A DNA stretch of 64,000 nucleotides from an uncultured bacterium (GTDB lineage: Bacteria; Armatimonadota; Abditibacteriia; Abditibacteriales; Abditibacteriaceae), in assembly GCA_963843795.1 (NCBI GenBank), contig CAWJLW010000006.1:1178001-1242000 (forward strand), written 5' to 3'. The first letter of the stretch is position 1. Every line of letters begins with the position of its first letter. The notes under the pieces are model-generated. The model saw only the letters and a program-made list of their open reading frames with translations. It was not told the DNA's origin and ran no database searches. Both the position numbers and the translations under genes were made by a program. Shown here piece by piece: positions 9,213 through 58,000 of the stretch.

Positions 9213-10289
9213 ATGGCCCGATCCGCGCGAAGTGAGAATTTTGAATGGAGTGAAGGAGCGTCCAAGACCGCGACATTGCAAGATGTGGCAGAAGCGGCTG
9301 GCGTGACTTCGATGACGGTTTCGCGCGTGATTAAAGGTCGTGATGGCGTGGGCGAGGCGACGCGCGAGCGCGTGTTGCGCATCGCGGAACAGCTCAACTA
9401 TACGCCGAATTTGTCGGCGCGGGCTTTGGCGACCGGCAAAACCGGCGTTATCGCCGTCATCAGTGGCGGTTTGAATCAGTTTTATTACGCCAATATCGTT
9501 CATCTGCTGGAAGAGGAAATCACTTCCAGCGGTTATCAGATGCGATTGCTGCACACGCACAGCGATTTGAAAGATTTGGTGAGTTCGACCCATTCGACTG
9601 CCGTCGATGGCGTTATCATCGCGGGCAAATATCACTTGGTCGAAGAGTTCCGCGCATTGGCGCCGCAGGTGTTTCAATCGTGCGTGTTCATCGATGCCTC
9701 GAAGCATAGCGAAACCGATTACGTTCACAGCAATCTGGAAACTGCTGTGGAATCTGCGCTCGAAATGATGCTCCAAGCGGGACGCACTCGTTTGGCTTAT
9801 ATCGGTCACTTCCAAAGTTTTCAACAGAAATTGAGCGAATTAATTTCAAGTCGCGCCGATGAACCTGCGGTTGTCGAAGAACGAATGCAGGCTTATCTTT
9901 CGGTTGTTAAACGAGCGGGCTTAACGCCTGAACTTATCGGATTGCAGCCCGCGTTCATTCTGACCTCAAACAGCCTGAGCAAGTACTTGCAGGAGCGCGG
10001 TTGTCCCGATGGTTTGCTGTGCGTAAATGATGAAACCGCGATGTATGTCTATCGCGCGGTGCTGGATGCGGGCTATCGCGTGCCCGACGATGTTCTGCTG
10101 GTGGGCTGCGATGGCTTGCCTTTTATGGAATGTTTTGAGCCGCCGCTGAGTACTATTGCTCAGCCGATGGCGGAAATTTGCGCGCTGGCGTGGCAATTTT
10201 TGCAAGCGCGCATCGCCAATCGCACTCTTCCTCGGCAACACCAATCCTTTGAGGCCCAATTGGTCGTTCGGCGCTCGTTGCAGCCGTAA
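9213..10289 (+). CDS. LacI family transcriptional regulator
   Basis: TLQDVAEAAGVTSMTVSRV HTH; YTPNLSARAL; PPLSTIAQP. Confidence 0.93.
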   Translation: MARSARSENFEWSEGASKTATLQDVAEAAGVTSMTVSRVIKGRDGVGEATRERVLRIAEQLNYTPNLSARALATGKTGVIAVISGGLNQFYYANIVHLLEEEITSSGYQMRLLHTHSDLKDLVSSTHSTAVDGVIIAGKYHLVEEFRALAPQVFQSCVFIDASKHSETDYVHSNLETAVESALEMMLQAGRTRLAYIGHFQSFQQKLSELISSRADEPAVVEERMQAYLSVVKRAGLTPELIGLQPAFILTSNSLSKYLQERGCPDGLLCVNDETAMYVYRAVLDAGYRVPDDVLLVGCDGLPFMECFEPPLSTIAQPMAEICALAWQFLQARIANRTLPRQHQSFEAQLVVRRSLQP

Positions 10290-10310
10290 TTGAATTCGAT
10301 TTTTTATGCT

Positions 10311-13300
10311 ATGAAAACCAAAATTTCCCTGTGGGCTATAGTAACTTTCGTGTTGTCGTCGGCAATTGTCGCGCGCGCCGTTGATGCGCCTTTGCCGCCT
10401 GAGATTGAAAATCCGCAAGTTCTCAGTCTCAATAAGGAACCGTGGCACGCCACTCTGATGCCGTACGCCAACATGAACGAAGCGCTTAATACCAAGCGCA
10501 GTGCCTCATCATTCTCGCGTTCCTTGAATGGGCAATGGAAGTTCCATTACGTGCCGCGTCCCGAACAGCGGCCCGTCGATTTTTACAAACCCGATTTCGA
10601 TGTGAGCGCTTGGAAGAACGATTTCGGTGCCTTCGAACTGGCAACTCAAAGGTTATGGAACGCCGTATTATCGCAACATCGGCTACACCTTCCAAAACGA
10701 TTGGCCGCGCGTGATGAGCGAACCACCCCGCGACTACACGGCGTATGAAGAGCGCAATCCGGTCGGCAGCTATCGCCGCAATTTCGATGTGCCCGCGAGT
10801 TGGAACGGACGCAAGGTTTTTCTCAGTTTCGATGGCGTCGATTCGGCGTTTTATGTGTGGGTGAACGGTCAGAAAGTCGGCTATAACGCCAATTCGCGCA
10901 ACGTGGCGGAATTTGATATCAGCAAGTACTTGCAGCGCGGCAAAACTAACACGCTGGCCGTCGAGGTTTATCGTTACAGTTCTGGCTCGTATCTCGAAGA
11001 TCAAGATATGTGGCGTTTGAGCGGCATTTTTCGCGATGTTACGCTGTGGTCGGCTCCCGTCGTTCACATGCGCGATTTCAACGTCACGACGGATTTAGAC
11101 GCGCAATATCGCAATGCCACCTTGCGCGTTGGCGCCAAAATTCACAATTACACCGCGCAAAATGTGGCCGCGCGCATTTTCACCGTCACGTTATTCGATA
11201 AAGCCAATAAAGTCGTGGGCGCGCCCATCAAAGTTTCGGTTCCGGCTTTGGCAGCGGGCGCGGAAACCATGGTCAGCGTGCAAATGCCGGTCATGAATCC
11301 GCTGAAATGGACGGCGGAAACGCCGAATTTATACACCGCAGTCTTGAGTTTGTCGAATGGCAACAACGCGCCGGAATTGCTGTCGCATCGCGTCGGTTTT
11401 CGCGAAATCGAAATCAAAGGTCGCCAGTTTTTGCTCAATGGTGTGCCGATTAAGCTCAAAGGCGCGAATCGCCACGAAAGCAACGTCAATACCGGACATT
11501 ACGTGACCGAAGCGAACATGATTCAGGACATTCTGCTGCTGAAAAAGTCCAATTGCAATCACGTTCGCACTTCGCATTATTCCAATTCGCCGCGCTGGTA
11601 CGAGCTAAGTGATGAATACGGTTTGTATCTCGTCGCTGAAGCCAACCTGGAATGTCACGGCAACCAGAGTTTGTCCAATGAACCGCGCATGGAAAAGATG
11701 TTCGTGGATCGCAACGTCGCTAACGTCGAAAACTTCAAAAACCATCCGTCGATTTTGATTTGGTCGCTGGGCAATGAATCGGGGCGCGGTCCGAACTTGC
11801 GCGTGGCAGAGAAAATGGTGCGTAGTTTGGATGCGACACGACCGACGCACTACGAAGGTTTTGGCATCGGCGACAACAACCCGGCGAGCTTGGATTCGCA
11901 GATGTATACGCAGACCGGCAGCCTGGACAGCGAAGCGCGCGACGCAAATTTGGAGAAGCCGTTGTATCTGTGCGAATACGCGCACGCGATGTTCAATTCG
12001 ATGGGTTCTCTGGGCGATTACAACGATATTTTCGACCAATATCCGTCGCTCTTGGGCGGTGCGATTTGGGAATGGGAAGATCAGGGCATCTGGAATCGAC
12101 GCGACCCGAAGCGCCAATATATCGCGTATGGCGGCGGTTTTGGTGAAGTGCCCAACGACCATTATTTCATTCACAAAGGCGTCGTTTTTTCCGACCGTTC
12201 GCCCAAACCGCATTATCCCGAAGTGCGGCGTGTTTATCAGTGGATTGGTTTCGCGCCCGCAGATTTGAGCCGCAATCAAATCAAAATCAAGAACAAATAC
12301 GCCTTCACCAATTTGAACAATTTTAAAGGCTTCTGGTCGATTAGCGAAGATGGCAAATGGACGCAGGGTGGCACTTTGCCGCGCTTGAGTTTGGCACCGG
12401 GCAAAGAAGTTACGCTGCCTTTGCCTGTTAAAAATTTCACGCCTAAGGCTGGCGCGCGCTACTATCTCAACGTCGCGATGGGGCTGACCAAAGATACCAA
12501 CTGGGCCAAAGCCGGTTATGAAATCGCGCGCACGCAAATCGAAATGCCGCAATCTGCACCCGCGCCGGTTTTGAACGCGGCCAACATGAAGCCGCTGAAA
12601 ATGGCGCGTAATGGCAACATTGTGACGATCAATGGTTCTGGCTTCGATGTGGCCTTTGATGCCGCGACCGGACAAATGACGCGTTTGGCGCGCGGTGGCG
12701 TAAACGTGTTGTTGCCGGGTGGCGGTCCGCAGTTGAATTTGTGGCGCGCGCCGCACCGCAACGACGATATGTATACAGCGGGCGCATGGGAACGCATGGG
12801 ATTGAAAGATTTGAAAACGCGCATTTTGAACTTCGAAACCAAGCAAATTTCGCCCTCAGAAATTTCAGTTCAGGAAACCTTGCAATTGGAGGGCAAAAAT
12901 GGCTTCGCTGTCACGCACGCCATCAATACTTCGATTTTTGGCGATGGCTCGATTAAAGTCGATAACGCCGTGATGCCGCAAGGCCCCGATATTACGCTGG
13001 CGCGCGTTGGCGTGCGGATGCTGCTGGACAAGCGTTTGGGCAACGTCAATTATCTGGCGCGCGGTCCAATGGAGAATTACGCTGACCGCAAACGCGGTTC
13101 GGACATCGGCGTTTATTCCAGTTCGGTATTCGAGCAAATGACGCCATACGCCAAACCGATGGAAGCGGGCAACCACGAAGATACGCGCTGGCTGGCGTTA
13201 CATGGCGCTAAAATGCCGACGCTTCTGGCGCAATCGGAAGGTGAACCGTTGCAATTCTCGACGCTGCCTTACACCGATGAACAAATGGAAAAACCGGAAT

Positions 13301-14151
13301 ATCGCGTCGATTTGCCGCCTTCAAACGCAACGGTTTTGAACTTGTCGGCGAAAACTCTGGGCGTTGGTTCGGCCAGTTGCGGCCCGCGTCCGCTGCCTTA
13401 TTGTTTGCTGGAAACTAACGCGATGGCGTTTTCTTACGGCTTGCGTTTGCTGCCTGCTGACACCAAAAATATGAACGAAATCTCGCGCACTGTCGCACCA
13501 AGCAAACGCGTGTGGCCGGTTTTGGCAATGCGCGATAAACAAGGCCTAATTTCGCTCGATGCGGGCGAAAACGCTCTAGCTTATTCCCGCGACGGCGCAA
13601 CGTGGCAGCCTTACAATGCGCCCTTTGCTTTCGCGCAAGGCGGTTTATTGAAAGTGCGTAGCACTGCGACTAACGGGCAGTCGATGGAAAGCGTGATTCC
13701 TTTCGATGCCTTTGCCAACCGCAGCGCGTGGAAAGTAACGGCGAGCGATTTTCAAAACGGCGAAGGCAATCCCGAACACGCGATTGATGGCGATACCGAT
13801 ACCATCTGGCACTCGCGTTATTCGCCGGATAAGCCCGGCTTGCCGCACTTTCTGATTGTGGATATGGCCGCGCCGCTTGCCATTGAATCCGTTCGACTGA
13901 CGCCGCGCCCCGATGGCTCGAACGGTCGCGCACGCGCCTATGATTTGTATCTCAGCAACGACAAAGAGAATTTCGGCGCGCCCGCAATGAGCGGAACTTT
14001 GCCCGATGAAGGCACGGTTCAAACTTTGAAATTGCCCCAAACTCAAACGGCGCGTTACCTGAAATTCGTGGTCAAAAGCGAATATTCACGTCAGGATTTA
14101 GGTTCGTTGGCCGAAATTAGCATCGTACCCGCCAATAGCGGAGTAAAATAA
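10311..14151 (+). CDS. Secreted GH2 beta-galactosidase with C-terminal F5/8C (CBM32-like) domain; apparent +1 frameshift near 10618
   Basis: Signal peptide, SLNGQWKF, LEDQDMWRLSGIFRDV, NHVRTSHY, WSLGNES, CEYAHAM; C-terminal HAIDGDTDTIWHS. Confidence 0.9.
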
Positions 14152-14181
14152 AGCACACAGAAATTTTTGAAGGATAGATCT

Positions 14182-14215
14182 GAAGATGTGTTGCAAGTAC
14201 TTGCAACACATCTTC
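14182..14215. terminator. 34-bp perfect palindrome centred on the iterated motif, between convergent genes
   Basis: GAAGATGTGTTGCAAGT/ACTTGCAACACATCTTC. Confidence 0.55.
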
Positions 14216-14273
14216 GCTCCACTTTTGAAAATCTCTGTGTCCTCTACGTTCTCGGTGGTCTATTTGCCCGCGC

Positions 14274-17069
14274 TTATGGCTTCCATTGCGAAGTCAGCGA
14301 GAAGACGTTGCCGCGCTTTTCGCCGCTGTAATTTCCCGCGACCGGTTGACGCAATTCGCTTGCGCCTGATGCGGCGAAGCTGCCGCCGCCAATTGCAAAG
14401 CGCAAAACATCGCCTTTTGTGCGCGTCACAAAAACGCGGGCGTCGCTTTTCCAGACTCCCACTTGCCACACGCCGGGTGCGTGCGCAACGACAACGCGCG
14501 TTAGCGTGCCGTCTTGTTGTTTAATTTCCACCGCTGAGGCGCCATTTTGTGCCGCTTCGTTCGCCAACCAGCGCACGCTCAGCACAGGATTTTTCCATTC
14601 ATCCAGCGCATACGCGGCGGCGAAATCGGCGTGTTGGCCGTTTTGCCGAGCCAACGCCATTTCATCGGTGTCTGGGCCCGTGCCGAGAATAATTTGCTGC
14701 TGCGGCGTGCCCGCCAACGTCACGGCAAACTTACCGGCTTTGGTATCCCAAACACCGTTCCAGCCATCACTTGCGTCTTTTCGCGCGCTCACTTTGAAAT
14801 TCTGATAACCGTCCTGCGCGCCCAGAGCTTTGGCACCTGTGGCAACAGGTAAGCCGAGCAGCTTGCCATTGTAGCGAAACGTTCTGTCCCAAGTGTGTTC
14901 GAGCGCGCTACGGCCCGCGAACAGATCAATCACCATATCGGGCAGCACTACAACGGTTCGGTCGAGCAAAACTCCCGCATAGCTGCCGCTCGATTCAGCG
15001 CGCATGATTTTTAGTTGCGGGGTGTCTTCGTAGACCAACAATTTGCCTTCAGTCGCAGCTTGCGACTTTTCGTCCACCGTCATCGTGTTGTGCGCGACGG
15101 TCGTATTCGTCCAGTCAGCGTGCAAAGGATTGTCGTAAAAGTGGAAATTCGGCTCGCCGCCCATTTCGTCGCCGACGCCATTGGGCAAAGCGGCATACAA
15201 TTCCAGATTCAGCTTGTCGTAATGGCCATGGACGCCACCGTGCGGCCCGAAATCGAGCAGCGTATATTTCAAATCGTCGCGCAGAATCGCGTAGCCCAGA
15301 CTGCCGAAAATTGTGCTGCCGGTTTTTGTCGTGGCCGCGTTTTCAAAAGAAGTGTAGAAACGTGTAGGCGCGTAAATATCATCGGAAGTGTGCAACTGGC
15401 GCGGCGTGTCATTGACCAGAGCGCGATAGTTCGGGTCGTTGTAGCGCAATAGCCCGTAATCGTAAGTAATGGTTTGCCAGCTTCCGAGTTTGGCGCGTCC
15501 CGAATCGTTGATGCCGGGCAAGGTGCCGTCGGGATAAGCGTAGCGCAGCGGCGAATCGAAGAGCATTTTGAAGCGACCGTTCGACGAATTCCACAGGTCG
15601 TAACCATGGTGCGCCGCCGTTTCCATGCCGGGCACCATCGCGCCCATCGCGAACAATTGATAGCCGATGGCACCTTCGCCCCACATTCCATCGTCGCCGA
15701 TGCCGGTGGCGATAGCGGTGCGCAGGTCGGCAGCCGCCAAATCCATCATGTTCTTGTCGTCCAGCAGCGCGCCCGCCATGATGGTGGCGGTGCTGTAAAA
15801 ATTCAGCCAGTTCGAATAATTGCCCTGCTGCGCCGTTGGCGGCGTGGCCGTGCGCCAATCGGGATTTTTCTGGCTGCGATTGTCCGCTTCCTGTGCGGGT
15901 TGTTGGCGACGAATTTCTTCAATCGCGGGGCGAATGAGGCCGCTTTCGATGAGATTTTTATCGCCATCGCTCAGAACTTTAGCGGCCAAAATGTAATCGT
16001 AGGCTTCGAGTTGCGGAATCAGCCACATCGCTTCCGAGAGGCGCTGTACCGTAATCTTAGAGGAATCGTTTTTGTTGAAACCACCGTGACGCGGATATTT
16101 CTGATAGCGCTGCGCATAGCCGAGCAGAATTTCGCGCGCCGCTCGCGCGTATTTTTCATCGCCGCTGAGCGCGTAAGCCATGCCCAGCGCCGCCGCGCGA
16201 TGCGATAATTTTTGATGCGTGTTGCCCGTTTTATTGGCGACGGTATCTTCTACCGAAGGAAATTCAATTGGCGCGACCAGATGACCATCGGCCAGTTTCA
16301 GAAAGCCTGCCAACGCGCTTTTGCCCTTTTCGCTTTGCTCTAAATTCTGGCGAAAACTGGCCAATTCCTGTGGCGTGAAAATCAAACTCGGATGCTCGCC
16401 AGCCTTGGCCACCTCCGGCAAAGTCGCTTTGACCGGCGTAGCGTTGGCTTGTAACGCTGTCGGATGGACAAAAATCGGCGCTTTGTCATCGTGGTTGGGA
16501 ACGTGAAATTTCGCATCGAGATCGGTGCTCGTCCAGACCGCCAAATCGGCCAATCCGCCCCATTTTACAGTTCCGGGAAAGTTGGATAAAACGGTGATTC
16601 TGATGCGGCTCACTTCGCGTTCGACCGGCACATCTTGCCAGACGATTTGCGCTCTGCCGCGCGCCGGTTTCGTGGGCCGTCCCAATTCCAATGTGTGCTT
16701 AATGGGAGCTGCGTCATCAAAAGAAATTTCCACCTCTTTGGGCGCGGCTTCAGCGGCGTAATCGGAATTGGCCAACGAAATTTTCTCGACTTGCATCGCA
16801 AAAGGCAGTTGCACCACGATGCTGTAAGGCGCGCCGGTCAAAACATAACGCGTGTGCGGGTTGCCATCAAGGTAAGCCTCTGGCGAAGTTTGCTTGTCTT
16901 TCACCACGTCTGGCCCCGCTTCCACACTGACGCGCACGCCATAATTATTGGACGCCGCGTTAAGCAGTTTCGGCCCAACGAGTTGAGCGTGCGCGCCACC
17001 GACAAACCAACTCAGCGCGAAGGCGCTGGCGAAAATATGACGAACCCAGCAATGATACTTCCGGCTCAT
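14274..17069 (-). CDS. Secreted alginate-lyase/heparinase II/III-like polysaccharide lyase (PL17-like)
   Basis: Signal peptide; QRLSEAMW, NW, GEGAIGYQ, LPGINDS, GPHGGVHGHYDKL, AHNTMTVD. Confidence 0.75.
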   Translation of the reverse strand: MSRKYHCWVRHIFASAFALSWFVGGAHAQLVGPKLLNAASNNYGVRVSVEAGPDVVKDKQTSPEAYLDGNPHTRYVLTGAPYSIVVQLPFAMQVEKISLANSDYAAEAAPKEVEISFDDAAPIKHTLELGRPTKPARGRAQIVWQDVPVEREVSRIRITVLSNFPGTVKWGGLADLAVWTSTDLDAKFHVPNHDDKAPIFVHPTALQANATPVKATLPEVAKAGEHPSLIFTPQELASFRQNLEQSEKGKSALAGFLKLADGHLVAPIEFPSVEDTVANKTGNTHQKLSHRAAALGMAYALSGDEKYARAAREILLGYAQRYQKYPRHGGFNKNDSSKITVQRLSEAMWLIPQLEAYDYILAAKVLSDGDKNLIESGLIRPAIEEIRRQQPAQEADNRSQKNPDWRTATPPTAQQGNYSNWLNFYSTATIMAGALLDDKNMMDLAAADLRTAIATGIGDDGMWGEGAIGYQLFAMGAMVPGMETAAHHGYDLWNSSNGRFKMLFDSPLRYAYPDGTLPGINDSGRAKLGSWQTITYDYGLLRYNDPNYRALVNDTPRQLHTSDDIYAPTRFYTSFENAATTKTGSTIFGSLGYAILRDDLKYTLLDFGPHGGVHGHYDKLNLELYAALPNGVGDEMGGEPNFHFYDNPLHADWTNTTVAHNTMTVDEKSQAATEGKLLVYEDTPQLKIMRAESSGSYAGVLLDRTVVVLPDMVIDLFAGRSALEHTWDRTFRYNGKLLGLPVATGAKALGAQDGYQNFKVSARKDASDGWNGVWDTKAGKFAVTLAGTPQQQIILGTGPDTDEMALARQNGQHADFAAAYALDEWKNPVLSVRWLANEAAQNGASAVEIKQQDGTLTRVVVAHAPGVWQVGVWKSDARVFVTRTKGDVLRFAIGGGSFAASGASELRQPVAGNYSGEKRGNVFSLTSQWKP

Positions 17070-17310
17070 GTTTAAAGATTCCTCAATTGACGTACAGATA
17101 CGCTGCAAGTACTTGCATCATATGTAGCAGACAAAAATTGCGCTTGAATCACGTCAGATTTTTTGGCAAATCCATGCTTGCGGGCGCTCGATGCTTCGAC
17201 ATTCCTCCATCATTCAAGTTTTTCTTGTAGTGAATAAACATTTGCGCCAATTGATGGGAATTGCCGCGCATCGCCGATACGCAAATGTACTTTTGCGCGA
17301 AAATGTCGAT

Positions 17311-18168
17311 TTACAAATTCTTGCCGACGATCACCGTATCGGGATCGAAATGCGGCGTGGCGAATTCGCGTGTGGCACGCCGTGCAAGTACTTGCGGGTC
17401 GTCCCGATACGAACGCGCGGCTGCCAAAAACAATTGCGAAACTTGCGGCAGCACTTTTTGCATCGCCTCTAAAACTTCGCCCTGCGTGAGTGGCGCCTCC
17501 GAAATACCCGCCGCCAAATTGGTGATGATGGAAATTCCAGCGTAGGAAATGTTGGCTTCGCGCGCCAAAACGACTTCGGGCACGCCGGTCATGCCAACGA
17601 CATCGGCGTTCCACGAAGCGTAAAGTTTAATTTCAGCGGGCGTTTCAAAGCGCGGGCCATCGGTGCACAAATAAGTGCCGCCATCGCGCAACGTAACGTG
17701 CAACTCTTGCGCAGCCTTCAACAGCGCCTCGCGCGCGTGTGGGCAATACGGCTGCGTCACATCGACATGAACCGGATAATCGTCGAAAAAAGTTTTGGCG
17801 CTCCTGCTGGTGGCGTCGATAAAATCATTCAGCAACACTAAAGTTCCGGGCGGGCAATCTCGGCGCAGGGAACCAACGGCAGTCGAAGCGAAAATTGCCG
17901 TCACGCCGAGCATTTTTAGAGCGGCGATATTGGCACGATAGTTAATTTTGTGCGGTGGGACGCGGCCCGTTTCGGAAGTGGGCGCGGCGTGGCGATGCAG
18001 AAAAACGATTTCGCGCGGTTGCGAATCGTCGGATTGCAAAGTCGCGCGCGTAATGAAAGCGCTGCCCCAGCGAGTTTCAATGCGTTCGTCGCGAGCGTTC
18101 TGGAGAGGCGAATTGTCGAGCGATTCCAGACCGGTGCCGCCGATAATGGCAACCAAAGAGGAAGGCAT
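17311..18168 (-). CDS. mtnP: Methylthioadenosine/methylthioinosine phosphorylase
   Basis: AIIGGTG, PPHKINYRANI, STAVGSL, GPRFETPAE, VGMTGVPE. Confidence 0.85.
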   Translation of the reverse strand: MPSSLVAIIGGTGLESLDNSPLQNARDERIETRWGSAFITRATLQSDDSQPREIVFLHRHAAPTSETGRVPPHKINYRANIAALKMLGVTAIFASTAVGSLRRDCPPGTLVLLNDFIDATSRSAKTFFDDYPVHVDVTQPYCPHAREALLKAAQELHVTLRDGGTYLCTDGPRFETPAEIKLYASWNADVVGMTGVPEVVLAREANISYAGISIITNLAAGISEAPLTQGEVLEAMQKVLPQVSQLFLAAARSYRDDPQVLARRATREFATPHFDPDTVIVGKNL

Positions 18169-18186
18169 GAGAAGTGAAAACGGGAA

Positions 18187-18387
18187 TTAGCGCTCGTTTT
18201 TGTGATCGGTGCGGAAATCGTCTTTGAAATCGTCGTCGAGATTCATATTGCGTTGAAATTCGCTGGTCATTTTCTTGACTTCGCGCACGCCTTTGCCGAT
18301 GTTGCGCGCCAGTTCGGGAAGCTTATCGGGGCCGAACAAAACCAGAACGACAATTAAAATCACGAATAACTCGGGTGTGCCGGGCAT
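18187..18387 (-). CDS. tatA: Twin-arginine translocase TatA/TatB subunit
   Basis: ELFVILIVVLVLFGPDKLPELARNIGKGVRE. Confidence 0.8.
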   Translation of the reverse strand: MPGTPELFVILIVVLVLFGPDKLPELARNIGKGVREVKKMTSEFQRNMNLDDDFKDDFRTDHKNER

Positions 18388-18439
18388 AACATTTCCTTTG
18401 AATCGGATGAATCTACGCTGCAAGTACTTGCGACACAGT

Positions 18440-19681
18440 TTAACGTTCCGGCCAATCGAGCATCAAAGCCGGAAATTTGTCTCCAGCTCCATAATTTTGG
18501 GTTTCGGGCCCAATCACCAATAACGCATTGGCGCGCGTCATTGTTGTCAAGCGCGCGCTGCCCTGTTCGCCGCTGATTTTCGCCGTCCAAGATTCGTCGA
18601 CTGGCTCGACCAGAGCGCGCACGTATTCGGTTTTGCCGCTGGGCGAACGGCCAGCGCTACCAACCGCTGCAAGTACCTGCGCGCGGTTTTTCGCGCGCCG
18701 ATTCTGCATCTGCAACAGAGCCGGACGCACCAACAGTTCCGCGGCGACCATCACCGAAACCGGATTGCCCGGCAAACCGAATATCGGCACCGTGCGCTCA
18801 GCTTTTTCCAGCGTCGCGAACATCACCGGTTTGCCGGGTTTAATGGCCAATTTCCAGAAATGTAACTGCGCGATGCGTGGTAAAACTTCGCGCACCGGAT
18901 CGAAGTCGCCCATCGAAACGCCACCGGAAGTCACGATTAAATCGCTGTATTTCGCGACTTCAAGGAGCAAATTTTTCAGTTCACTTTCATCGTCGCCGCA
19001 ACGATAATTTTCAATTTGCGCACCGTAACTTTCCAGCAAACCGCGCAGAGCGTAAGAATTGGAATCGTGAATCTGGCCCGCACACAACGATTGGCCGACG
19101 GGCATTAATTCTTCGCCAGTCACGATAATCGCGACGCGCGGACGCTGCGCAACTTCAACTTCACTTTGCCCCAGCGCTGCCAGAAGCGCCCATTCGCTGG
19201 CGCGGATTAAAACGCCCGCCTGAAGCGCGATTTGGTCGCGCGCGATGTCGTTTCCGCGACGGCGAATGTTCTGGCCAGCCTTTACCTTGGCTTGAAAATG
19301 CACGCGCGTGTTGTCGATGGTTTTTTCGATCGTCGTTTCTTCCCGCATCACAACCGCATCAGCACCCGGCGGCAGCGGTGCGCCGGTCATAACCGCGACA
19401 CAGTGGCCCGCAAGTACTTTCCGCGAATTTTCACCACCCGCAGCGTTCACACCATCAAGAATTAAGGTCGGCGAATTTGACAAATCGGAGCAGCGAAGCG
19501 CGTAGCCGTCCATAGCGGAATTATCGAAGGGCGGCAAATTGAAGGGTGCGGAAATATCGTGCGCCAGTGTGCGATGCAAAGCGGCATCGAGTGCGATGGT
19601 TTCGGTGCCAAGAGTTGGCGCGTGCCGCAAAACGATTTGCAGTGCGAGTTCGGGCGTGATTAGAGACAGCGGCGCGCTCAT
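18440..19681 (-). CDS. moeA: Molybdopterin molybdenumtransferase
   Basis: PPFDNSAMDGYA, MTGAPLPPGADAVVMRE, SGGVSMGDFD, KPGKP, GLPGNPVS. Confidence 0.93.
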   Translation of the reverse strand: MSAPLSLITPELALQIVLRHAPTLGTETIALDAALHRTLAHDISAPFNLPPFDNSAMDGYALRCSDLSNSPTLILDGVNAAGGENSRKVLAGHCVAVMTGAPLPPGADAVVMREETTIEKTIDNTRVHFQAKVKAGQNIRRRGNDIARDQIALQAGVLIRASEWALLAALGQSEVEVAQRPRVAIIVTGEELMPVGQSLCAGQIHDSNSYALRGLLESYGAQIENYRCGDDESELKNLLLEVAKYSDLIVTSGGVSMGDFDPVREVLPRIAQLHFWKLAIKPGKPVMFATLEKAERTVPIFGLPGNPVSVMVAAELLVRPALLQMQNRRAKNRAQVLAAVGSAGRSPSGKTEYVRALVEPVDESWTAKISGEQGSARLTTMTRANALLVIGPETQNYGAGDKFPALMLDWPER

Positions 19682-19703
19682 AAAAATTGGTTGTGGGCGG
19701 GTT

Positions 19704-21256: not shown

Positions 21257-21310
21257 AGTTTGAGAGCTGCAAGTACTTGCAGACGTAAGTTGCAACCTTG
21301 ATGCAAAACT

Positions 21311-46545: not shown

Positions 46546-46549
46546 AAAA

Positions 46550-46581
46550 TGCGCGTGTTGCAAGTACTTGCAACACGCGCA
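46550..46581. repeat. 32-bp perfect palindrome centred on the iterated motif
   Basis: TGCGCGTGTTGCAAGT/ACTTGCAACACGCGCA, just upstream of a start codon. Confidence 0.9.
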
Positions 46582-46595
46582 AACAACTGAATCTA

Positions 46596-47423: not shown

Positions 47424-47471
47424 CTCCTGTTTTGCGCGCTGCAAGTACTTGCAGCGCGCTCAAACTTCATT

Positions 47472-50224
47472 ATGAATTCTTTCCATCATTTTGCCGGTTT
47501 CGCGCTGGTTCTCGCTATGTCTTTGCCCGTTATGGCCCAACAAAATCCCGCGCCTGCAACTGATGCCAAAACCGCGCTCGGTTTGGAAGATGGCACGCTG
47601 AATTTCGAAACGCCCGATTTCACGCTCAAACTGGTGAAAGATTCGCAAACCGTGTCGGCGCTATTGCCTAAAGGTGCGAATGGTTTCGATTTCGCGCCTT
47701 CCGACCGTTTGGAAAAACGCGCGGCCAATGGCTTCAATCATCTGGGCGATCATCACGTTTCGCGCGCGCAAGGGCAAAGCCGAAGCGTGGCGCGATTACG
47801 CGACTTCTGCTCAGCGCAAGCCCGTCGTCAATTTGCCCGCCCAAACTGGCGTTTTGGCGACTGCCGATTTATCGCCGACTTTGCCCGAAAATTGCCCGCT
47901 GCAAAATTACGCGCAGTTGGCTGGTCGAAAACGGAAAATTGGCGCTGCGTTTCGACATCAAAAACATCGCCAATCAGCCAGTAGAAATCGGCGCGCTGGG
48001 CATCCCGATGGTGTTCAATAACATCATTTCCGACCGTTCGTTATCCGAAGCGCACGAAAAATGTGCGTTTTTCGATCCGTATATCGGTCAGGACGCGGGT
48101 TATTTGCAGGTCACGCGCTTGAGCGGCAAAGGGCCGGCGTTGGTCGTCGTGCCCGAAGGGAAAACGCCGTTTGAAGCGTATCATTTGCTCGATGAGCCGA
48201 TTAAACCGAACCAAACTTTTGAGGGCACTTTCGAGTGGATGGCGCACACGCAGGCGTATGCCGAAAACGAGTGGAGCGGCGTCAAACAGTGGAATCCGCC
48301 CACGGTGCAAGTACTTGCACCCGGCCAAACGCGCTCTTATGGCGTGAAGTTGCTGTTATCGCCTGCAAATCCGTGATATTGAAAGATACTTTGGCCGCCA
48401 ATAAGCGTCCGGTTGCGGTCGGAATTCCGGGCTACGTTTTGCCGCAAGACGAAAATGCCAAGCTGTTTTTAAATTACGCTTCGGGCGTGAAATCGTTGGA
48501 AGCCGAACCCAAAGGCGCGGTGGCAATTACGCGCAAACCGAACGCAAAAAATGGTTGGAAAAGCTACGATTTGCGCGGGCAGGGTTGGGGCCGCGCGCGC
48601 CTGACCGTGACTTACGACGACGGAACCAAACAGGCGATTAGCTATTACGTCACCAAGCCAGCAGCCGAAGCGGTCAGTGACATGGGCAATTTTTTGTTCA
48701 CCAAACAATGGTTTGTCGATGCTAACGATCCGTTCAAACGCAGCCCGTCGGTGATTTCTTACGACCGCGAAGCCGATAAGCAATTGACGCAGGAAACGCG
48801 CGCGTGGATTGCCGGTTTGGGCGATGAAGGCGGTTCGGGCGCGTGGCTCGCCGCAGCGATGAAAGAATTCGGTCAGCCCGAACCAAATGAAATCGCGAAA
48901 TACGAGCAGTTCGTAAACAACGTAATTTGGGGCAATTTGCAGTTCAAAGACGGCCCAAAAAAGTGGGGCGTGCGCAAAACCACGTTTTTCTACGACCCCA
49001 AAGTACTGCCCGACTTTGCTTACGACCCGAAAATTGACGGGCGCAGTTGGACGAACTGGAATCAAGAAGTCTCGAATGATATCGGGCGCGGCTACAATTA
49101 TCCGCACGTCGTGGCCGCCTATTGGGCGATGTATCGCATCGCGCGCAACCATCCGGGTTTGGTCAAAAGCCACGATTGGAAATGGTATCTCAATCAGGCT
49201 TACGAAACCACGAATTTCGCGTTCGGTCGCAAAGCCAACGGCGAGCGCAACGTCGGTTACGTCGAATTGGGTTTGATGGACGGCACGGTTTTTCTGGAAT
49301 TATTGAAAGACCTTAAACGCGAAAATTGGGGCGAACAATCGACACGCGTTGAGGCTTTGATGCGCGAACGCGCCGAGCGTTGGAAGGGCGAAGAATATCC
49401 GTTCGGCAGCGAAATGGCGTGGGATTCGACCGGTCAGGAAGAAGTTTACGACTGGTGCGATTATTTCGGATACGACGACAAAGCGCAAGTGTCGCTGAAC
49501 TCGATTCTGGGCTACATGCCGACCGTTCCGCACTGGGGCTACAACGGCAACGCGCGCCGCTACTGGGATTTTCTGTATGGCGGCAAACTGTCGCGCATCG
49601 AACGCCAGTTGCACCATTACGGTTCGGGCTTGAACGCGATTCCGGTTCTCGATTCTTACCGCGAAAACCCCGACGACTTTTATCTGCTGCGCGTCGGTTA
49701 CGGCGGCACGATGGGCGCGCTGACCAATATCGACCGCGAAGGTTTCGCTTCGGTCGCTTTCCACTCGTTCCCGAGCACGCTTGAAATGGGACGCCTATTC
49801 GGGCGATTACGGCCCGAACTTCTTCGGTCACGCCATCAACACTGCGACCTATCTCATCAATCATCCCGATTTCGGCTGGCAAGCGTTCGGCGGCAACGTG
49901 TCCACGCGCGGCGATTGGGTTACGGTCGAACCACGCGATTCGTTTCGCCAGCGCGTTTACATCGCGCCGCGCGGCCTGTGGTTGAATCTCGATGCTGGAA
50001 CTTTCCAATTGGTGCGTTTCAACACGCGCACCGGAGCCGTGCGCATCCAAATCCCCGCCGCGACACAATTCACACCAACCGCGCGTTTGCGCATTGAACA
50101 GCCAGCGAAAATTGACGGCGTCGGAACCTATCGCACGCGCAAAACTTTCCCGCAACAAAACGGTATCCACGAAATCGCGCTTGGCAAAACCGCGACAGAA
50201 ATCGAATTAGCTGTGGCGCAATAA
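47472..50224 (+). CDS. DUF5695-type secreted protein (putative glycosidase), split by four apparent +1 frameshifts (about 47750, 47905, 48368, 49780)
   Basis: Consecutive ORF pieces join by single-base removals; AWIAGLGDEGG, YNYPHV, PFGSEMAWDSTGQE, PHWGYNGNARRYWDF. Confidence 0.7.
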
Positions 50225-51432: not shown

Positions 51433-51891
51433 ATGCACGCGCCCACCGAGAAAAACACGATTTCGCGCCGCTCCGATAAGTCCTCGTGGACTTCTGTATG
51501 GTTGGCGATGGTGTGCGCGCTGCTGCTGGTCTCGCCGGGTCAGGCTGCGCCTTCGTTGTCGCAAGCGCGCCAGACGGCATCTTACGAGACGGTTTTTTAC
51601 TGGTTGCAAAATGCCGAAACCGAATCGGCTTCGCGCGCGCAAGTGCTGCAAACGCTGTGTCGTAGCGCCGGTTTGAACCGCGTTCAAACTGCCAATGTGT
51701 TGAACTCGTATCAGCAATGGACACGCGAACATTCGACATCACAACTTTCCGCATCTGCCGCAACTTTGCCTGCAAGTACTTGCAGGAGCTTTGCGCCGAT
51801 TGTTTTGCGCGATACGCGGCCTTTTGACGCCAAAATGTCGCGTCACACCGGTCGCGCCGCCCATTCACTCGCTGTTTGTTATCTGGAATAG
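51433..51891 (+). CDS. Hypothetical signal-peptide protein directly upstream of secA
   Basis: WTSVWLAMVCALLLVSPGQA-A signal-like segment; TATAAT at about 51409. Confidence 0.55.
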   Translation: MHAPTEKNTISRRSDKSSWTSVWLAMVCALLLVSPGQAAPSLSQARQTASYETVFYWLQNAETESASRAQVLQTLCRSAGLNRVQTANVLNSYQQWTREHSTSQLSASAATLPASTCRSFAPIVLRDTRPFDAKMSRHTGRAAHSLAVCYLE

Positions 51892-52045: not shown

Positions 52046-55000
52046 ATGCTCGACTTTAAAAATTTATTCGGCAAGAAAACCGTTGATCCCAACGCGCCGA
52101 TTTCGCATCAAGCGCCCGGCGGTATCGCCGGAGCAGTTTCCAAGCTGTTCGACAAAAACGAAAAAGAAGTCGCCAAGCTGCGACCGACCATTGATCGCAT
52201 TCGCGAACTTGGCGAAGAACTCAAATCGCTGCCCGACGAAGAAATCAAAGCCCGCTCGCAGGCCTTGCGCGAACGCTTCAAAACCGACGTGACCCAACGT
52301 TTGGGCGAATTTAAAGATGGAGAAGGCAACGCTTACGGTTGGCAGGAACTCGGCACCGAGCTTTCGTGGAGCGACGATTACGCTCGCCTGCGACTGGAAA
52401 CTGAAAAGCAAGTTTTGAACGAATTGTTGCCCGAAGCCTTCGCTCTGGTACGCGAAGCGGGCGAACGCACAATTGGTTTGCGCCATTACGATGTGCAGCT
52501 TATCGGCGGCGCGGTTTTGCATTCGGGGCGCATCGCCGAAATGAAAACCGGTGAAGGCAAAACACTCGTCGCCACTTCGCCGGTTTATCTCAATGCACTC
52601 AGCGGGCGCGGCGTGCATTTGATTACGGTCAACGATTATTTGGCCGAGCGCGATGCGAACTGGATGCGGCCCGTTTATGAATTTTTGGGTCTCACGGTCG
52701 CGTTTTTGTTCAACGATATGGACAACGAGGCGCGCAAAGCTGCTTATCAATGCGACGTTTTGTATGCGACCAACAGCGAAGTTGGCTTCGATTATCTGCG
52801 CGATAACATGGCGCGCTCGCCCGAAGATATGGTGCAACGCGCGCTCAACTACGCCGTGGTCGATGAAGTTGACAACATCCTGATCGACGAAGCGCGCACG
52901 CCGCTGATTATCTCGGCGCAAGTTGCCAAAACTGACCGCGCTTTGCGCCGACAGGCGATGGCGAAAACTTGCGACAAATTGGCGCAGCAATTGATGCCTT
53001 CCGTCGTTGACCGCGAAATTGATGCGCTTTTGGATACGCACACGCATAAAGGCCGCGTTTCGATTGATGGATTAATGGAAGACATCATCGGGCGCGGCGC
53101 GTTTACAGAAGCGACTTCGTATCTTGTCGATGCCTATCTCAGCGCGGAAAACAGCGCGCGCGTCGAAAATGCCGCACATTTGCTGGATGTGGCGAACGAA
53201 CTTTCGCAGCATGCTTTAATTGATGAGAGCGGGCGCTCCCGCCTGGAAAAATTGGCCTTGGAAGCCGCCGATGTGGAAAAAGTGCGCGATGCGTGGACGG
53301 CAGAAGTTTCGCATTTGACCGAACCGCTGGCGCGCGCGTGGTCGGTCGGGCAGAGCAGCGATTGGGACGTTGATGCTGTGGCGCGCGAACTATCGCTGCC
53401 AGTTGGCGAGCGCGCAGCGATTGCCGAGTATGAGGGAAGTGGACGCGAAATCATCGCGCGCGTGGTCGGCGATGAGGCCCAACATCGCGGCTTTGTGAAT
53501 GATGGAGATGTGCTCGCCAAAGCCTTGCTGGAAGAATCCGAAGACGTGGCCGGGCAGGTTTTGGATGTGTGTTTGAACGGGCCGGGGGCGCTGCACGAAG
53601 CCGATGCAATGCTGGGCGAAGGTTTGCCCGAAGAAGAAAAGCTCTCCGCTGGCGAAGTGGGCGCGACTGAATTGCGCACCCTTATTGGCGCCATGGAGCA
53701 AATCGCGTTGCGCGGTTTGCTGCCGTTCGATGTGTTGGAACGTTTGTGGCAGACGGTGACTTTACCGCAAGGCGCGGACAAATTGCGTAAAGTAATCGCG
53801 CAAACTATTATCGAAAATCCCGGCGCCAATGCACGCGAAATTTCACTGCGTTGCCAGTCGTACGAAGCCGAACGCCAGAAGTTTTTGCAAACACAAGCGG
53901 GCATTCTGCGAGGCGCTTTGGATGGTTATCCCAGCGTAGCGGGCAAGGCCGAAACCGGGGAAAGCGCGCTGACCCTCAGGCGTTCGTTGCAAAGCGAAAT
54001 TACCAAAAGTGGGCCGTTTGCGCAAAGTATGAAAGCTGTGCGCGACTGGCGACAAGATAACGAACGCGCGCACCATCGCGTGGCCGAAACCCTGGCCGAA
54101 GAAATGGGGCAATGGGTCGAAACTCCGCCCAATGCGCGCAAACAACTCGCTGCCTTGACGCTTGAAGGCGGTAGCAGCCAACAAATGCTGGAGCGCGTTT
54201 TGGTCGCTGTGCGCGATTTGCCGGGCGAAAACACCGAACTGCCGGCGTTGGTCGGCGAAGCGACGCGACAAATCGAAGAATGGCGTCATCAAAGCGCGCA
54301 GGAATTGACCGAACGCATTAGCTCACACATCGAATTGCCCGCAGATGCGCAGTTGCAATTGCAAGAAGCAATTGAAAATGGCGAATACCCGGACACTTTC
54401 GATCAGTTCGCCGGTGAGGTTTTGCTTTCTTCACCAACCGTCGCGCCCCTCGCGGATGCGGTCGATGAATACGGCGTGCGTTTGGAAGAATTTAAATCCG
54501 CGCAGAATCAATCGCTGCTCGAATTCATTGCAAGTACTTGCGACCTGACAACTGATGCCGTGGATATGATTGGCGAAGTTTTGAACAGCCCGATTAAAGG
54601 CGCGCTGGATGAAGCCGTTTTTGGCGAATTGGCGCGCGATACGGTTTCGCGCCATTTGGAACCATTATTGACAGCCGAGAATGCCGATGCGTTTGCCGAG
54701 GAAGTCAAGCGCCGTATTCCGCTCGCCAAAGAAGTGCAGAACAAACTGCGCGCGGCAGATTTTGCCGGTCGTTCGGGCGATGCGCTCCGGCGTTCGATGG
54801 TGCGTCTGGTCGAACGTTCGCTGGAGATCATGCCATTTGAAGATTACAAGCGCGTGGTGCGCAACCTAGGTTGGTTGACTGAAAAGGATGAAAAGCGTCG
54901 CCAATCGGCTCTAACCGATATGGGCACGCTCATCGCCGAACGCGCGGCGGGCACACCAGCGTTTACCGATCCTGAAAACTTTCTGGATACGCTGATTGCG

Positions 55001-58000
55001 GGTGAAATTCTCACCGACGACGAAGCGGCGATTGTGCAGCGCGCGCAAACCGAAGCGCCCGACGAAACCCTGACGCAGACGATTGACCGCGTTTTGCGCT
55101 TGCCCGCCGAACGTCGCCGCCGCTTGGCCGAAGCCAAGTTGCAGGAAGTGCAAAACGTCTTGGATCAGGCGATTCGAGCGCACGCTTTATTCTCTCGCGA
55201 AGTGCATTATGTGATCGATTTGAACCCGGAAACCGGCAAGCGAGAAATCGTGATCGTCGATGAATCGACCGGTCGCAAAATGCCAGGCCGTCGTTTCAGC
55301 GAAGGTTTGCACGAGGCTTTGGAAGCCAAGCAAGGTTTGGAAGTGCAATTGGAATCGCAGACGGTTGCTTCGATCACGATTCAAAACTATTTCCGCCTTT
55401 ACAATAAGCTCAGTGGAATGACGGGCACGGCGAAAACCGAAGAACAAGAATTTGCCAAAACGTATGGCATGGAAGTGGTTTCGATTCCGACCAACCGCCC
55501 CATTCAGCGTCAGGATTTCCCCGACGTGGTTTACAAAACCAAAGAAGCCAAAATGCGCGCGGCGACTTTCGAGATTTTGGAACATCACTGCGTTGATCAG
55601 CCGGTTTTGGTCGGCACGCGCTCGGTTGAAGTTTCCGAACGCACCAGCGAACGATTGAAAGCGCAACCGTTGCAAGCCTTGGTGCTAGCGCACCTTGCGA
55701 AAACCGTGATTTGGGAATCGAAAGAAATGTCAGAAGAGCAAAAGCTGCAATTCCTGACCGCGCTGCGTGTTCCCTTAGTGATGCCGCCGGTTGAAGACGC
55801 ACAGGAATTGAAAAAGCAAGGTTTGCGCGCCGAACCGCTGCCGCTGAGTCAGATCAAGCAAATCGTGAAAAGCGTCGGCGTCGATCCTGACCCGCTGGCC
55901 GAAGCCAACATCGACAAACTGATGAGCTTGTTTTCGGTGAACAACGCCAATCGCGACCGATTGACTTTAGCGTTGAAAAACGGCTTGGCGCATTCGGTGT
56001 TAAATGCGAAAAACCACCGCAACGAAGCGCGCATTATCGCCGAAGCAGCGCGTCCAGGTGCGGTGACGATTGCGACCAACATGGCCGGTCGCGGCGTCGA
56101 TATTATGCTCGGCGGCGTTTTGGATGTCGAATCGCGCTGGCGCGTGATGACGATGCAAGCCCTGGCGCGCCATCTCGAAAATCGCTCGCTTCATGTGCGC
56201 AGCCGTAACGCAGCATCGACGGAAAAATTTGTCACTCGCTTGGCTCCACAAAGTTTGCAAGCCTTAGCGTGGGCAACTTTGATCGGTGAAAAATTGGAAG
56301 CGCTGGAAAAAAGCGGCGTTTTAATCGGGCAGGGCGCGAAAGAAATGCGTGACACGCTGGGGCAGGAAATCACGATTGCCGACTTGCAGCAGAAAGTTCG
56401 CAGTCGCGCGCGTCGTTTGAAAATTGATAAGCAATTGCCGCTCGACCTGAGCTACAACGACCCGCAAGTACTTGCTGCGTTGCAAAATCGCATTGCAACG
56501 CTGGGCTATCAAAAACCGGAGATTTCCGCACTGCAAAGCGCATTGGAAAATGGCGTGCCTTCGCAAGCGGCAGGACGCGATCCGCTGGAAAGCATGATTT
56601 TGGGCGCGCTGAGCGTACCATTGAGCATCGCTCAGCAGGGCGCGCAAAAGCTGGTGCAAGTACTTGCCGACGTGCCCGACTTGGATCGCGCGTTGCTGCA
56701 AGCGTGCATCGATTCCGGCAGTGACGAATTGGACGTGACACAAATCGCGCCCGTTGTCGGTGATGTGACCGATGAATGGTGTGCCACTCGTTTGCATGAT
56801 TGGGACGTGACCAATCGCGACGAGGCACGTCAAATTCTGGAACAGTTGCCTGAAGAACAAATCGAAATCAACGAAGCGCAAATCGCGCGTTTGTTAGGTG
56901 AGCAGAATCTGGGTGGCGGCTGGGTGCGCGAGCGTTTGAATTCTTGGGAAATCTGTTCGATTCCACGTTCATTTGAAGCGAGCGAAGAGATCGCGCAATT
57001 GCTGGGTGATAACGTCGTCGTGCATTATCGTTTGGATACACAAGCCGCGCAAGTACTTGCGGAGCGTTTCGAGAACGACCAGATGGCGCAATTGGAAACG
57101 ACCGAAATTGATGCGCCGAACGTGATTTTATTAAACGATCTGGTGCAGCAGATCGGCGGGCAACCAGATTGGTTGTCGCCAGAATGGTTGCACGGACAGT
57201 TGCTGGGCATGAACCTGGTCACTGGCGATAACGACGTATTCCAAGGCCAAATGATGGCCCAAGCGCAGGACGAAAACGGGCAGGTGCAGGAAATGCCGAT
57301 TGATGTGATGATTTACCGCATTACATTGGCGCGCTTGCTGGCCGCTCTCGATTCGACCTTACGCGAAGCCGTAGTGCGTGTCGGCGATGATGCGGTCAAA
57401 GTCTTAGATTACGTGCGCGAACATGGCGCGTGGGCCAACGAACTGGTGACGCGCGATTATATCGCGGCGCGTTTGCCCATGTTGGGCGATATTCCCATCA
57501 CGCAGAACCAGAATAACGCAGTCAACATCGAAACGGGCGTGGCCGGACAAAGCGCCGATCTGGTGTTGGACGACGAACCTCGTCCCGAAGAGATCGCCCA
57601 CACTTCCGAGCAAGAGGAAGTTTTGGCCCTCGGCGGCTTGCACATTCTGGGCACCGAGCGCCATGAATCGCGGCGCATCGACCATCAGTTGCGCGGTCGC
57701 GCTGGTCGTCAGGGCGATCCGGGTTCGAGCCGCTTTTATGTGTCTTTGGAAGACGAATTGTGGCGTTTGTTCGGCGTGCGCGGGCAGTGGCTGCTGAACA
57801 AATGGGACGAGGACGAGCCGGTCGAAGCGGGCATGATTTCCAAGTCGATTGAGCGCGCACAGAAGAAGGTCGAGCTGAACCATTTCGAAGGCCGCAAACA
57901 CGTCTTGCAATATGACGACGTGATGAATGTGCAGCGCGAAGTGATTTATCGCGAACGCCGCCGCGCCTTGTTGGGTGGCGACTTACATGAAACGGTTTTG

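Follow-up and report, generated by a model that had tools for sequence, protein, structure and literature searches.

The perfect 12-bp palindrome GCAAGTACTTGC occurs 41 times in a 64-kb stretch of DNA from an uncultured bacterium of the family Abditibacteriaceae (64,000 nucleotides of contig CAWJLW010000006.1, hereafter the window). The 4.30-Mb assembly to which the window belongs (G000) carries 2,567 copies, about one per 1.6 kb. Our analysis makes it very probable that this word is a signal at the level of DNA, kept by drive or by selection and placed where it is tolerated. We give a probability of roughly 45% to the reading that it serves as a self tag, which would be recognised when DNA is taken up or recombined and would spread through molecular drive.

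Abundance and fidelity of the word

The 41 exact copies of the window compare with none in 100 shuffles. In G000, one-mismatch versions amount to 506 copies, distributed among 36 variants that differ mainly by transitions, and the numbers of exact and one-mismatch copies (2,567 vs 506) indicate that all 12 positions are held. The AGTACT hexamer at the centre of the palindrome is found 3,241 times in the genome; 2,965 of these hexamers lie within AAGTACTT and 2,567 within the full word. Weaker CT..AG flanks, seen even within genes, bring the effective word to about 16 bp, and such a graded profile is what would be expected from recognition of DNA by a protein. Spacing between copies has a coefficient of variation (CV) of 0.89, with few gaps exceeding 4.8 kb. 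A search of genome contigs with the 16-mer, from which the genome of the window was excluded, gave at least 36 single chance matches in unrelated genomes. We found nothing in print on the exact 12-mer or on uptake words in this family, and no AGTACT palindrome among the papers listed.

Genes were predicted with our own open reading frame (ORF) caller, a crude one that ranks the longest ORFs by codon log-odds and assigns 86% of the genome to coding sequence. With these calls, 1,359 copies are intergenic, 151 lie across gene edges and 1,057 are within ORFs. The 14% of the genome left non-coding contains 59% of the copies, a density of 2.54 per kb compared with 0.285 per kb in coding sequence (9 times higher). 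The 41 copies of the window, which span positions 1894–60617, are divided into 19 intergenic copies, 2 at gene edges and 20 within the longest ORFs.

The word overrides codon and residue choice in all three frames

The initial annotation had listed 12 coding copies in the window, read as ASTC, KYL or QVLA depending on the frame, and had suggested that a DNA-level drive fixes the motif wherever the protein tolerates it. After removal of the first 70 and the last 10 codons of each ORF, 615 deep coding copies were retained in G000, and all three frames are used (98 copies read as ASTC, 129 as KYL and 388 as QVLA). The proteome-wide count of these peptides and of their codons, which had been proposed as a check, was made on 2,767 ORF cores and revealed both an excess of the peptides and an abnormal choice of codons; it did not refute the suggestion. 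ASTC was seen 110 times for 2.9 expected by composition (38-fold), QVLA 435 times for 29.4 (15-fold) and KYL 261 times for 89 (3-fold). The exact word encodes 96, 387 and 166 of these peptides, respectively, for 0.21, 1.6 and 10.8 predicted by codon usage. Word codons therefore account for 87% of ASTC, 89% of QVLA and 64% of KYL, where 0.2–4% was expected. Permuted peptides are rarer than the genuine ones, by 4–10 times for ASTC and QVLA and by about 2.5–5 times for KYL. The codons imposed by the word include rare ones, such as GTA (7.4% of Val codons) and CTT (8.4% of Leu codons), as well as AGT and GCA. For annotation, recurrent ASTC, KYL and QVLA peptides and patches of rare codons should be considered as by-products of the word and not as protein motifs.

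Coding copies settle at tolerant positions

The initial annotation had also called for the sites to be mapped onto protein conservation. We compared G000 with 1.6 of the 3.8 Mb of a relative, G009, using 643 pairs of best tblastn matches, which are on average 60% identical. The alignment was gap-free at 104 of 122 G000 coding sites, which indicates that the coding copies arose by substitution and not by insertion; an insertion origin, of the type expected for miniature inverted-repeat transposable elements (MITEs), was rejected on this ground. Gaps were present at the other 18 sites, compared with 7.1% in the null distribution (3 of 2000 permutations). The residues encoded by the word are 31.5% identical to those of G009, whereas randomly chosen places of these alignments reach 56.6%. 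Conservation is also reduced in the 12 flanking residues on each side, which lie outside the word: their identity is 49.2% versus 56.5% at random (none of 2000 permutations gave a value as low). At word positions, G009 already holds the V at 32 of 69 sites, the L at 37 of 69 and the Y at 16 of 32, so the word settles where the protein already fits its centre. The density of copies falls from 0.28 per kb in genes with less than 50% identity to 0.095 per kb in genes with at least 70% identity. The reverse test, with 256 sites of G009's own word, gave the same picture, the flanks being 47.2% identical versus 58.5%.

The proposal that the copies occupy tolerant positions thus holds as a statistical tendency; it is not a rule, since several copies listed in the window are located within Pfam domains (Peripla_BP_3 of the LacI-family regulator, GH2_N, the catalytic domain of GH127 and TPR_19). 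The peptide and codon excess and this tolerance both support fixation of the motif by a DNA-level drive where the protein permits it, but drive and site-by-site selection cannot be distinguished with these data.

Dialects and persistence of sites among relatives

The full 12-mer is limited to 0–3 copies in each of 40 relatives. AGTACT, by contrast, is hyper-abundant in six genomes of the family (G000, G001, G009, G012, G015 and G019), with 2,813–4,733 copies, and near-absent in most others; the AGTACT-poor genomes number 25, with 1–126 copies per genome in genus g2 and 1–15 in genus g5. The AGTACT-rich genomes use different words built on the same core: CAAAGTACTTTG in G001, TCGAGTACTCGA in G009, G015 and G019 (1,164 copies per 1.6 Mb in G009) and CGAGTACTCG in G012. 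The AGTACT centre is constant between these dialects and the neck changes. A metagenome scan with a 20-mer yielded 117 stretches; the 80 loci that we analysed, mostly 67–80% identical to G000 at the DNA level, carry the 10-mer form CAAGTACTTG.

Between species, numerous sites stay in register to a degree that exceeds protein constraint. In the comparison with G009, AGTACT is found in the same register at 13 of 123 gap-free coding sites, and 10 of these are the full word of G009. Where both species have an aligned VL dipeptide, G009 uses AGTACT at 12 of 21 positions that are word-coded in G000, compared with 57 of 708 other positions (odds ratio 15, p = 3e-8). The metagenome relatives have 66.5% amino-acid identity with G000, and only 44% of their codons for identical residues match, synonymous positions being largely randomised. 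At 58 coding sites, they carry AGTACT in register in 32 cases, the 10-mer in 29 and the 12-mer in 11, and none of the in-register sites is the one that served to find its locus. Where the peptide is identical, the DNA is identical at 9 of 12 sites, compared with 6.5% of control windows (p = 4e-9). G001 is placed in the same genus as G000, yet it is no closer than G009 (59–74% amino-acid identity); AGTACT is in register at 2 of 6 comparable coding sites.

Sister genera had seemed to avoid AGTACT specifically. This interpretation was softened to a general avoidance of GTAC-containing and other 6-bp palindromes, because TGTACA is as rare there (1–20 copies per genome in g2 and g5, 2–10 in 5 genomes). 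In G000, AGTACT is found 276 times outside AAGTACTT, for about 897 expected. Many 6-bp palindromes are reduced to 0.004–0.1 of expectation in G000 and G009, for instance CCTAGG (0.02 in G000) and GCTAGC (0.004 in G009). GCGCGC and CGCGCG are over-represented 7–9 times in the family.

Other members of the family harbour words of a different kind. In samples of 11–30 kb, in which some loci overlap and are counted twice, we observed the asymmetric words GAGTACGGTCGA in G006 (L008, L122) and CGCCGTGGCTGC in G007 (L010, L128). The further hyper-abundant, non-palindromic words AAGGCTAAAGGTTGAAG and CCACAAAAAATGAAG were seen in G013 (L009, L129) and G020 (L102, L124). A 10.6-kb metagenome contig, L218, contains 16 exact copies of the 12-mer, and its DNA hardly resembles that of G000. 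Its source may be a different organism that spells the word identically, or a highly variable region.

DNA of foreign type lacks the word

The main contig of G000 contains two 26-kb gaps free of the motif. These regions carry transposases of the Mutator, IS4/5, IS21 and IS3 types, a Type I restriction system and an HNH nuclease. Contig C3 (L292, L293), with 3 copies in 40 kb, harbours a phage-tail-like extracellular contractile injection system (eCIS) and an ISL3 transposase. Both the 26-kb gaps and C3 conform to the pattern known from uptake sequences, in which recently acquired DNA is devoid of the word. Self-repeats that could represent insertion sequence copies add up to just 4.5 kb in the assembly, with 0 motifs for 2.7 expected, too little sequence to be informative. 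The injection-system genes of C3 comprise sheath, tube, baseplate, Pvc16_N, an AAA ATPase and the eCIS core.

Intergenic copies are often located at the tip of hairpins

Intergenic copies lie at a median of 31 nt past the upstream stop codon. The share of spacers with at least one copy is 69% for convergent, 46% for tandem and 39% for divergent gene pairs, and intergenic density follows the same order, down to 1.19 per kb in the promoter-bearing divergent spacers. The palindrome is extended by at least 7 perfect pairs per arm in 431 of the 1,359 intergenic copies, and the intergenic logo reads AAAA-GCGCGCT-word-AGCGCGC-TTTT. Among 525 long hairpins we counted 226 distinct stem 7-mers, which indicates complementary arms and not copies of one element. 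Copies flanked by both an A and a T tract make up 38% in convergent spacers, 10% in tandem and 4% in divergent ones, a pattern suggestive of two-way terminators for a subset of copies; in tandem spacers, however, an upstream A tract (23%) is about as frequent as a downstream T tract (25%). Extra pairing is absent from 407 of the 1,359 intergenic copies (30%) and from 400 of the 615 deep coding copies. Four intergenic copies of the window illustrate these arrangements:

4034–4067: copy capping a perfect palindrome of 34 bp that ends in AAA/TTT and looks like a terminator.
41237–41270: copy capping a perfect palindrome of 34 bp, with a stem unlike that of 4034–4067.
47434–47459: 26-bp perfect palindrome with 7-bp GC arms, 10 nt past the stop of gene 46503–47423.
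58745–58778: copy directly past secA, capping a perfect palindrome of 34 bp whose stem is again different.

A simple consensus terminator scan of positions 1–20000 gave 43 sites for 40 expected and flagged no motif hairpin. Its best site in these 20 kb, at 4900–4934, is a two-way hairpin of 16 pairs that lacks the motif; terminators free of the motif therefore exist as well. In our reading, the word occupies the free end of hairpins whose existence has other causes, and is not a terminator itself. The A and T flanks are taken here for a hairpin or terminator context and not for bending DNA. The earlier argument against a purely terminator or operator role is borne out by the 615 copies deep in ORFs, 400 of which have no extra palindrome, but it has a limit, intergenic copies being 9 times denser and often located in terminator-like hairpins. 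A transcription-factor operator was rejected in view of the 2,567 sites and of the lowest intergenic density in divergent spacers. A mobile element of the REP (repetitive extragenic palindromic) or MITE type was rejected as well, on the grounds of the 226 stems among 525 hairpins, the 104 of 122 gap-free coding sites and the 615 deep coding copies.

Candidate readers

We searched the genomes for proteins that might read the word. The ScaI-type restriction enzyme RE_ScaI (PF09569) was found in none of 31 genomes, a weak test because it gave no match in the control genomes either. Neither a C5 (PF00145) nor a Dam-type methyltransferase (PF02086) is present in G000, the Vsr repair nuclease is absent from all six AGTACT-rich genomes, and PF02384 gave seven matches. 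The sole N6_N4 methyltransferase of G000 (G000:C6:2517368-2518135; L093:1483-2253, minus strand) is an orphan beta-class adenine enzyme, closest to M.RsrI, MboIIA and CcrM, and conserved in about 20 of 26 genomes of the family. Its orthologs are 56–75% identical and occur in AGTACT-poor genomes too, including G020, which has the closest one (75%). Present in word-rich and word-poor genomes alike, this enzyme does not track the word. The g2 genomes in which its match is absent or weak (G002, G010, G023, G021 and G016) have 33–126 AGTACT, versus 1–21 in the g2 genomes with the gene, a comparison that is phylogenetically uncontrolled. Among competence functions, G000 has ComEC, DprA, a ComEA-like HHH_3 protein and 7 secretin matches over the Pfam cut-off; such genes also occur in non-competent bacteria.

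Comparison with known abundant words

The known DNA uptake sequences (DUS) of Neisseriaceae and uptake signal sequences (USS) of Pasteurellaceae are asymmetric words. Their intergenic copies occur as pairs in terminator-like places after genes, DUS has dialects, and the DUS receptor of Neisseria is ComP, a minor pilin. The word described here resembles them in several respects: it is missing from recently acquired DNA, its intergenic copies lie in terminator-like inverted repeats, and relatives use dialects. It also differs from them, being a perfect 12-bp palindrome found in another phylum. [quoted passage not shown] Peptide inflation is about 2-fold there (PMC2817400), compared with 15–38-fold here. 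In coding regions our word agrees with uptake sequences on every point (PMC2817400), with stronger effects. The traits shared with uptake sequences are abundance in genes and spacers, peptide inflation at poorly conserved sites, absence from acquired DNA and dialects.

The highly iterated palindrome HIP1 of cyanobacteria (GCGATCGC), the nearest analogue among palindromic words, and its alternates form the second point of comparison. They are hyper-abundant both within genes and in spacers, and their sites are shared by different genomes more often than codon expectation predicts (PMC4390886, PMC5861425). In some lineages another palindrome has taken the place of the word, the core resembles a restriction or methylation site, and a role in DNA exchange is suspected. 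HIP1 has been reported to boost natural transformation and proposed to be an uptake signal (bioRxiv 10.1101/2024.09.10.611283 and PMC13756078), and PMC4390886 describes a link between HIP sequences and a methyltransferase. For HIP1, Xu et al. (PMC5861425) argue for site-wise selection for a chromosomal function. Our word shares the abundance and the conserved sites of these palindromes; it is neither GCGATCGC nor a GC-rich alternate in cyanobacteria. HIP1 is a GC-rich octamer, whereas the word of G000 is 12 bp long, has an AT-rich AGTACT core and occurs outside cyanobacteria. No methyltransferase tracking the word was found among the genomes compared, and sister genera are almost without the core.

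The NTS (dRS3) repeats of Neisseria are hairpin-forming intergenic repeats that number in the hundreds and are linked to transformation, which are read by Ssn single-strand nucleases (PMC11893778). The same source presents NTS as a 28-nt oriented hairpin located outside genes, in which the loop sequence is unimportant (PMC11893778). Here, in contrast, the centre is conserved and one copy in four is located deep in a gene. REP elements and BIMEs (bacterial interspersed mosaic elements) are abundant imperfect palindromes found after genes, extragenic elements of copy type associated with RAYT (REP-associated tyrosine) transposases. They differ from the present word, whose stems vary from copy to copy and whose gene-internal copies arose by substitution.

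A proposed self tag and its alternatives

According to the reading that we prefer, a self tag of the uptake-sequence or HIP1 type, a sequence-specific protein of a DNA-uptake or recombination route would read GCAAGTACTTGC on double-stranded DNA. The word would then spread by biased uptake together with gene conversion, that is by molecular drive, and would persist wherever a protein or a hairpin tolerates the copies. We infer three elements of this scheme, namely a protein reader, reading during uptake or recombination, and drive in preference to site-wise selection.

Several points weigh against the self tag. Copies are spaced somewhat more regularly than at random (CV 0.89), and known DUS and USS are asymmetric where the word here is a perfect palindrome. 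The competence genes of G000 are also found in 6–11 of 14 control genomes, E. coli included, so that their presence is permissive and shows no more than that uptake is possible; no reader protein was identified among the candidates examined. Since the core contains GTAC, otherwise strongly avoided by the family, there are hints that restriction or methylation is involved. Sites in register across species are also predicted by site-wise selection for a chromosomal function. Finally, the gene calls rest on our own crude ORF caller, the putative orthologs were taken from the best tblastn matches in 80 metagenome loci and in a single relative, of which 1.6 of 3.8 Mb were covered, and an uptake role for this uncultured organism would be deduced from sequence.

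Regular spacing and sites kept in register beyond protein constraint would also fit a dimeric nucleoid or chromosome-organising protein that binds the 12–16 bp palindrome, each site being maintained by selection where coding allows. A palindromic 12-mer with graded CT..AG flanks suits such a binder, the spacing is more even than Poisson (CV 0.89, few gaps above 4.8 kb), and a similar case has been argued for HIP1 (PMC5861425). We nevertheless consider this explanation unlikely. The words of sister lineages differ and some are asymmetric, so that thousands of sites would have to switch together with their reader, and repeatedly; the 26-kb islands and the 40-kb contig manage without the word; density simply tracks tolerance, with a 3-fold drop in conserved genes and a 9-fold rise in intergenic DNA; and the analysis gave no candidate protein. 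That the word is a by-product of mismatch repair linked to methylation, as in Elhai's model for HIP, in which a methyltransferase marks an inner sequence such as GTAC or AGTACT and a repair enzyme converts near-matches into the full word, seems to us somewhat less plausible still. It could draw on the restriction-type core of the palindrome, the strong avoidance of GTAC-containing hexamers in the family, the orphan beta-class adenine methyltransferase conserved across it, the predominance of transitions among one-off variants and the HIP-methyltransferase link described in PMC4390886. G000, however, lacks C5 (PF00145) and Dam-type (PF02086) methyltransferases, Vsr is found in 0 of 6 AGTACT-rich genomes and RE_ScaI in 0 of 31 genomes (its controls being silent too), and the sole N6_N4 enzyme does not track the word. 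A specificity of 12–16 bp and the asymmetric words of sister lineages also suit a methyltransferase poorly.

The word could alternatively act as the loop and neck of a hairpin, in single-stranded DNA or in RNA, either as a bidirectional terminator or as the target of a hairpin-specific nuclease or transposase of the REP/RAYT or NTS/Ssn type, the gene copies representing spill-over. The 431 of 1,359 intergenic copies with at least 7 extra pairs per arm, the AAAA-stem-word-stem-TTTT logo, the median position 31 nt after stops, the order of densities (convergent, tandem, divergent), the paired A and T tracts (38%, 10% and 4% in that order) and the constant AGTACT centre with a changing neck all point in this direction, as does the reading of NTS repeats by Ssn nucleases (PMC11893778). 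We judge a hairpin function improbable, because extra pairing is missing from 407 of 1,359 intergenic and from 400 of 615 deep coding copies, coding copies arose by substitution (104 of 122 gap-free) and the 226 stems among 525 hairpins do not correspond to a copy-and-paste element. In tandem spacers, moreover, the A and T tracts (23% vs 25%) are unlike what one-way terminators need, and the scan of positions 1–20000, with its 43 sites for 40 expected, flagged no motif hairpin. Selection on the ASTC, KYL and QVLA peptides themselves, or chance or compositional bias, has the raw peptide excess as its sole argument and retains practically no credit. A single DNA word serves all three frames and both strands of genes and also occurs in spacers, and synonymous spellings are almost unused (14 of 110 for ASTC, 48 of 435 for QVLA). 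These codon counts, the absence of copies from shuffles and the 0–3 copies in each of the 40 relatives refute this possibility.

If the self tag is extended to the relatives, the whole family, which lies outside Proteobacteria and Cyanobacteria, might run a self-DNA tagging system whose word is re-spelled in each lineage on a GTAC-purging background, a proposal that we make tentatively. AGTACT-core palindromes would be used in some lineages and unrelated asymmetric words in others, which, just as tentatively, would imply that thousands of sites have been rewritten in place. For hyper-abundant words that override coding, a firm link to a function is known from just two families of Proteobacteria, where they are uptake sequences, and the purpose of HIP1 in cyanobacteria is still debated after 30 years. 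The Abditibacteriaceae provide a third, unrelated lineage, with a longer palindromic word, very strong effects on the proteome and at least five spellings among close relatives, next to genera almost without the core. Such a series of switches is suited to two questions, namely which protein reads these words, and whether they are maintained by drive or by selection. If the proposal is true, the many dialect switches within one family would allow comparative genomics to find the reader and the purpose of the tag.

Coding copies in the window

All 12 coding positions listed in the initial annotation carry the exact 12-mer. The frames that it gave agree with the phases of our own ORFs in 11 cases, and the twelfth copy (48307) reads QVLA in the middle frame of the DUF5695 gene. 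Pfam supports the gene names (LacI family, GH2, PNP_UDP_1, GHMP kinase, FecR+TPR, GH127, DUF5695 and SecA), so that 11 of the copies are located in genes with Pfam support, one of them frame-broken, while the copy at 51772 falls in an unsupported ORF.

9979–9990: (S)KYL(Q) copy in the LacI-family regulator gene 9213–10289 (+), residues ~256–260, within Peripla_BP_3; the G009 ortholog has KEYFE there.
10922–10933: KYL copy in the GH2 beta-galactosidase gene 10627–14151 (+), residues ~99–103.
17384–17395: QVLA copy in the PNP_UDP_1 phosphorylase gene 17311–18168 (-), in the C-terminal tail past the Pfam domain; the G009 ortholog has AHTES.
20612–20623: ASTC copy in the GHMP-kinase gene 20318–21337 (-), between the N and C Pfam domains.
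25802–25813: QVLA copy in the FecR+TPR protein gene 23818–27156 (-), residues ~448–452, within a TPR repeat (TPR_19).
44203–44214: KYL copy in the GH127 gene 43881–45806 (+), residues ~108–112.
48307–48318: QVLA copy in the middle frame (47672–48376) of the DUF5695 gene (47472–50097), which is split into three frames.
51772–51783: ASTC copy in ORF 51433–51891 (+), possibly non-coding.
52046–58735 (+): giant SecA gene, 2229 aa, with two large insertions common to the whole class.
54530–54541: ASTC copy, SecA residues 829–832, insertion 1; G001 has GGAAGTACTTTG in register.
56464–56475: QVLA copy, SecA residues 1474–1477, insertion 2, opposite variable residues in 11 relatives.
56656–56667: QVLA copy, SecA residues 1538–1541, insertion 2; G001 has GAAGTACTTTCC in register.
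57049–57060: QVLA copy, SecA residues 1669–1672, insertion 2.

The four secA copies had been assigned to lineage-specific insertions. They are indeed all located in the segments ~296–1022 and ~1418–1843, which are unmatched by the SecAs, about 1,100 aa long, that other families of this phylum possess, but these insertions are class-wide and not species-specific. In an alignment with 11 relatives, the four word positions face variable residues and are essentially gap-free, and spellings of the G001 type are in register at two of the four sites. The insertions comprise about 730 and 430 residues and are conserved across the class at 41–65% identity.

ORF 51433–51891 has no Pfam match and a low coding score, and searches of 11 SecA-upstream loci, of 1.6 Mb from G009 and of 80 metagenome loci revealed no homolog. 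Because this ORF has neither family nor homolog, the copy at 51772 may be non-coding. The three frames of the DUF5695 gene (47472.., 47672–48376 and 48223–50097) correspond either to a pseudogene or to assembly frameshifts. Eight further copies are included in the longest-ORF calls, at 7474, 21269, 30559, 36424, 38866, 43908, 46560 and 50254; most of them lie in the first 60 codons, probably upstream of the true starts.

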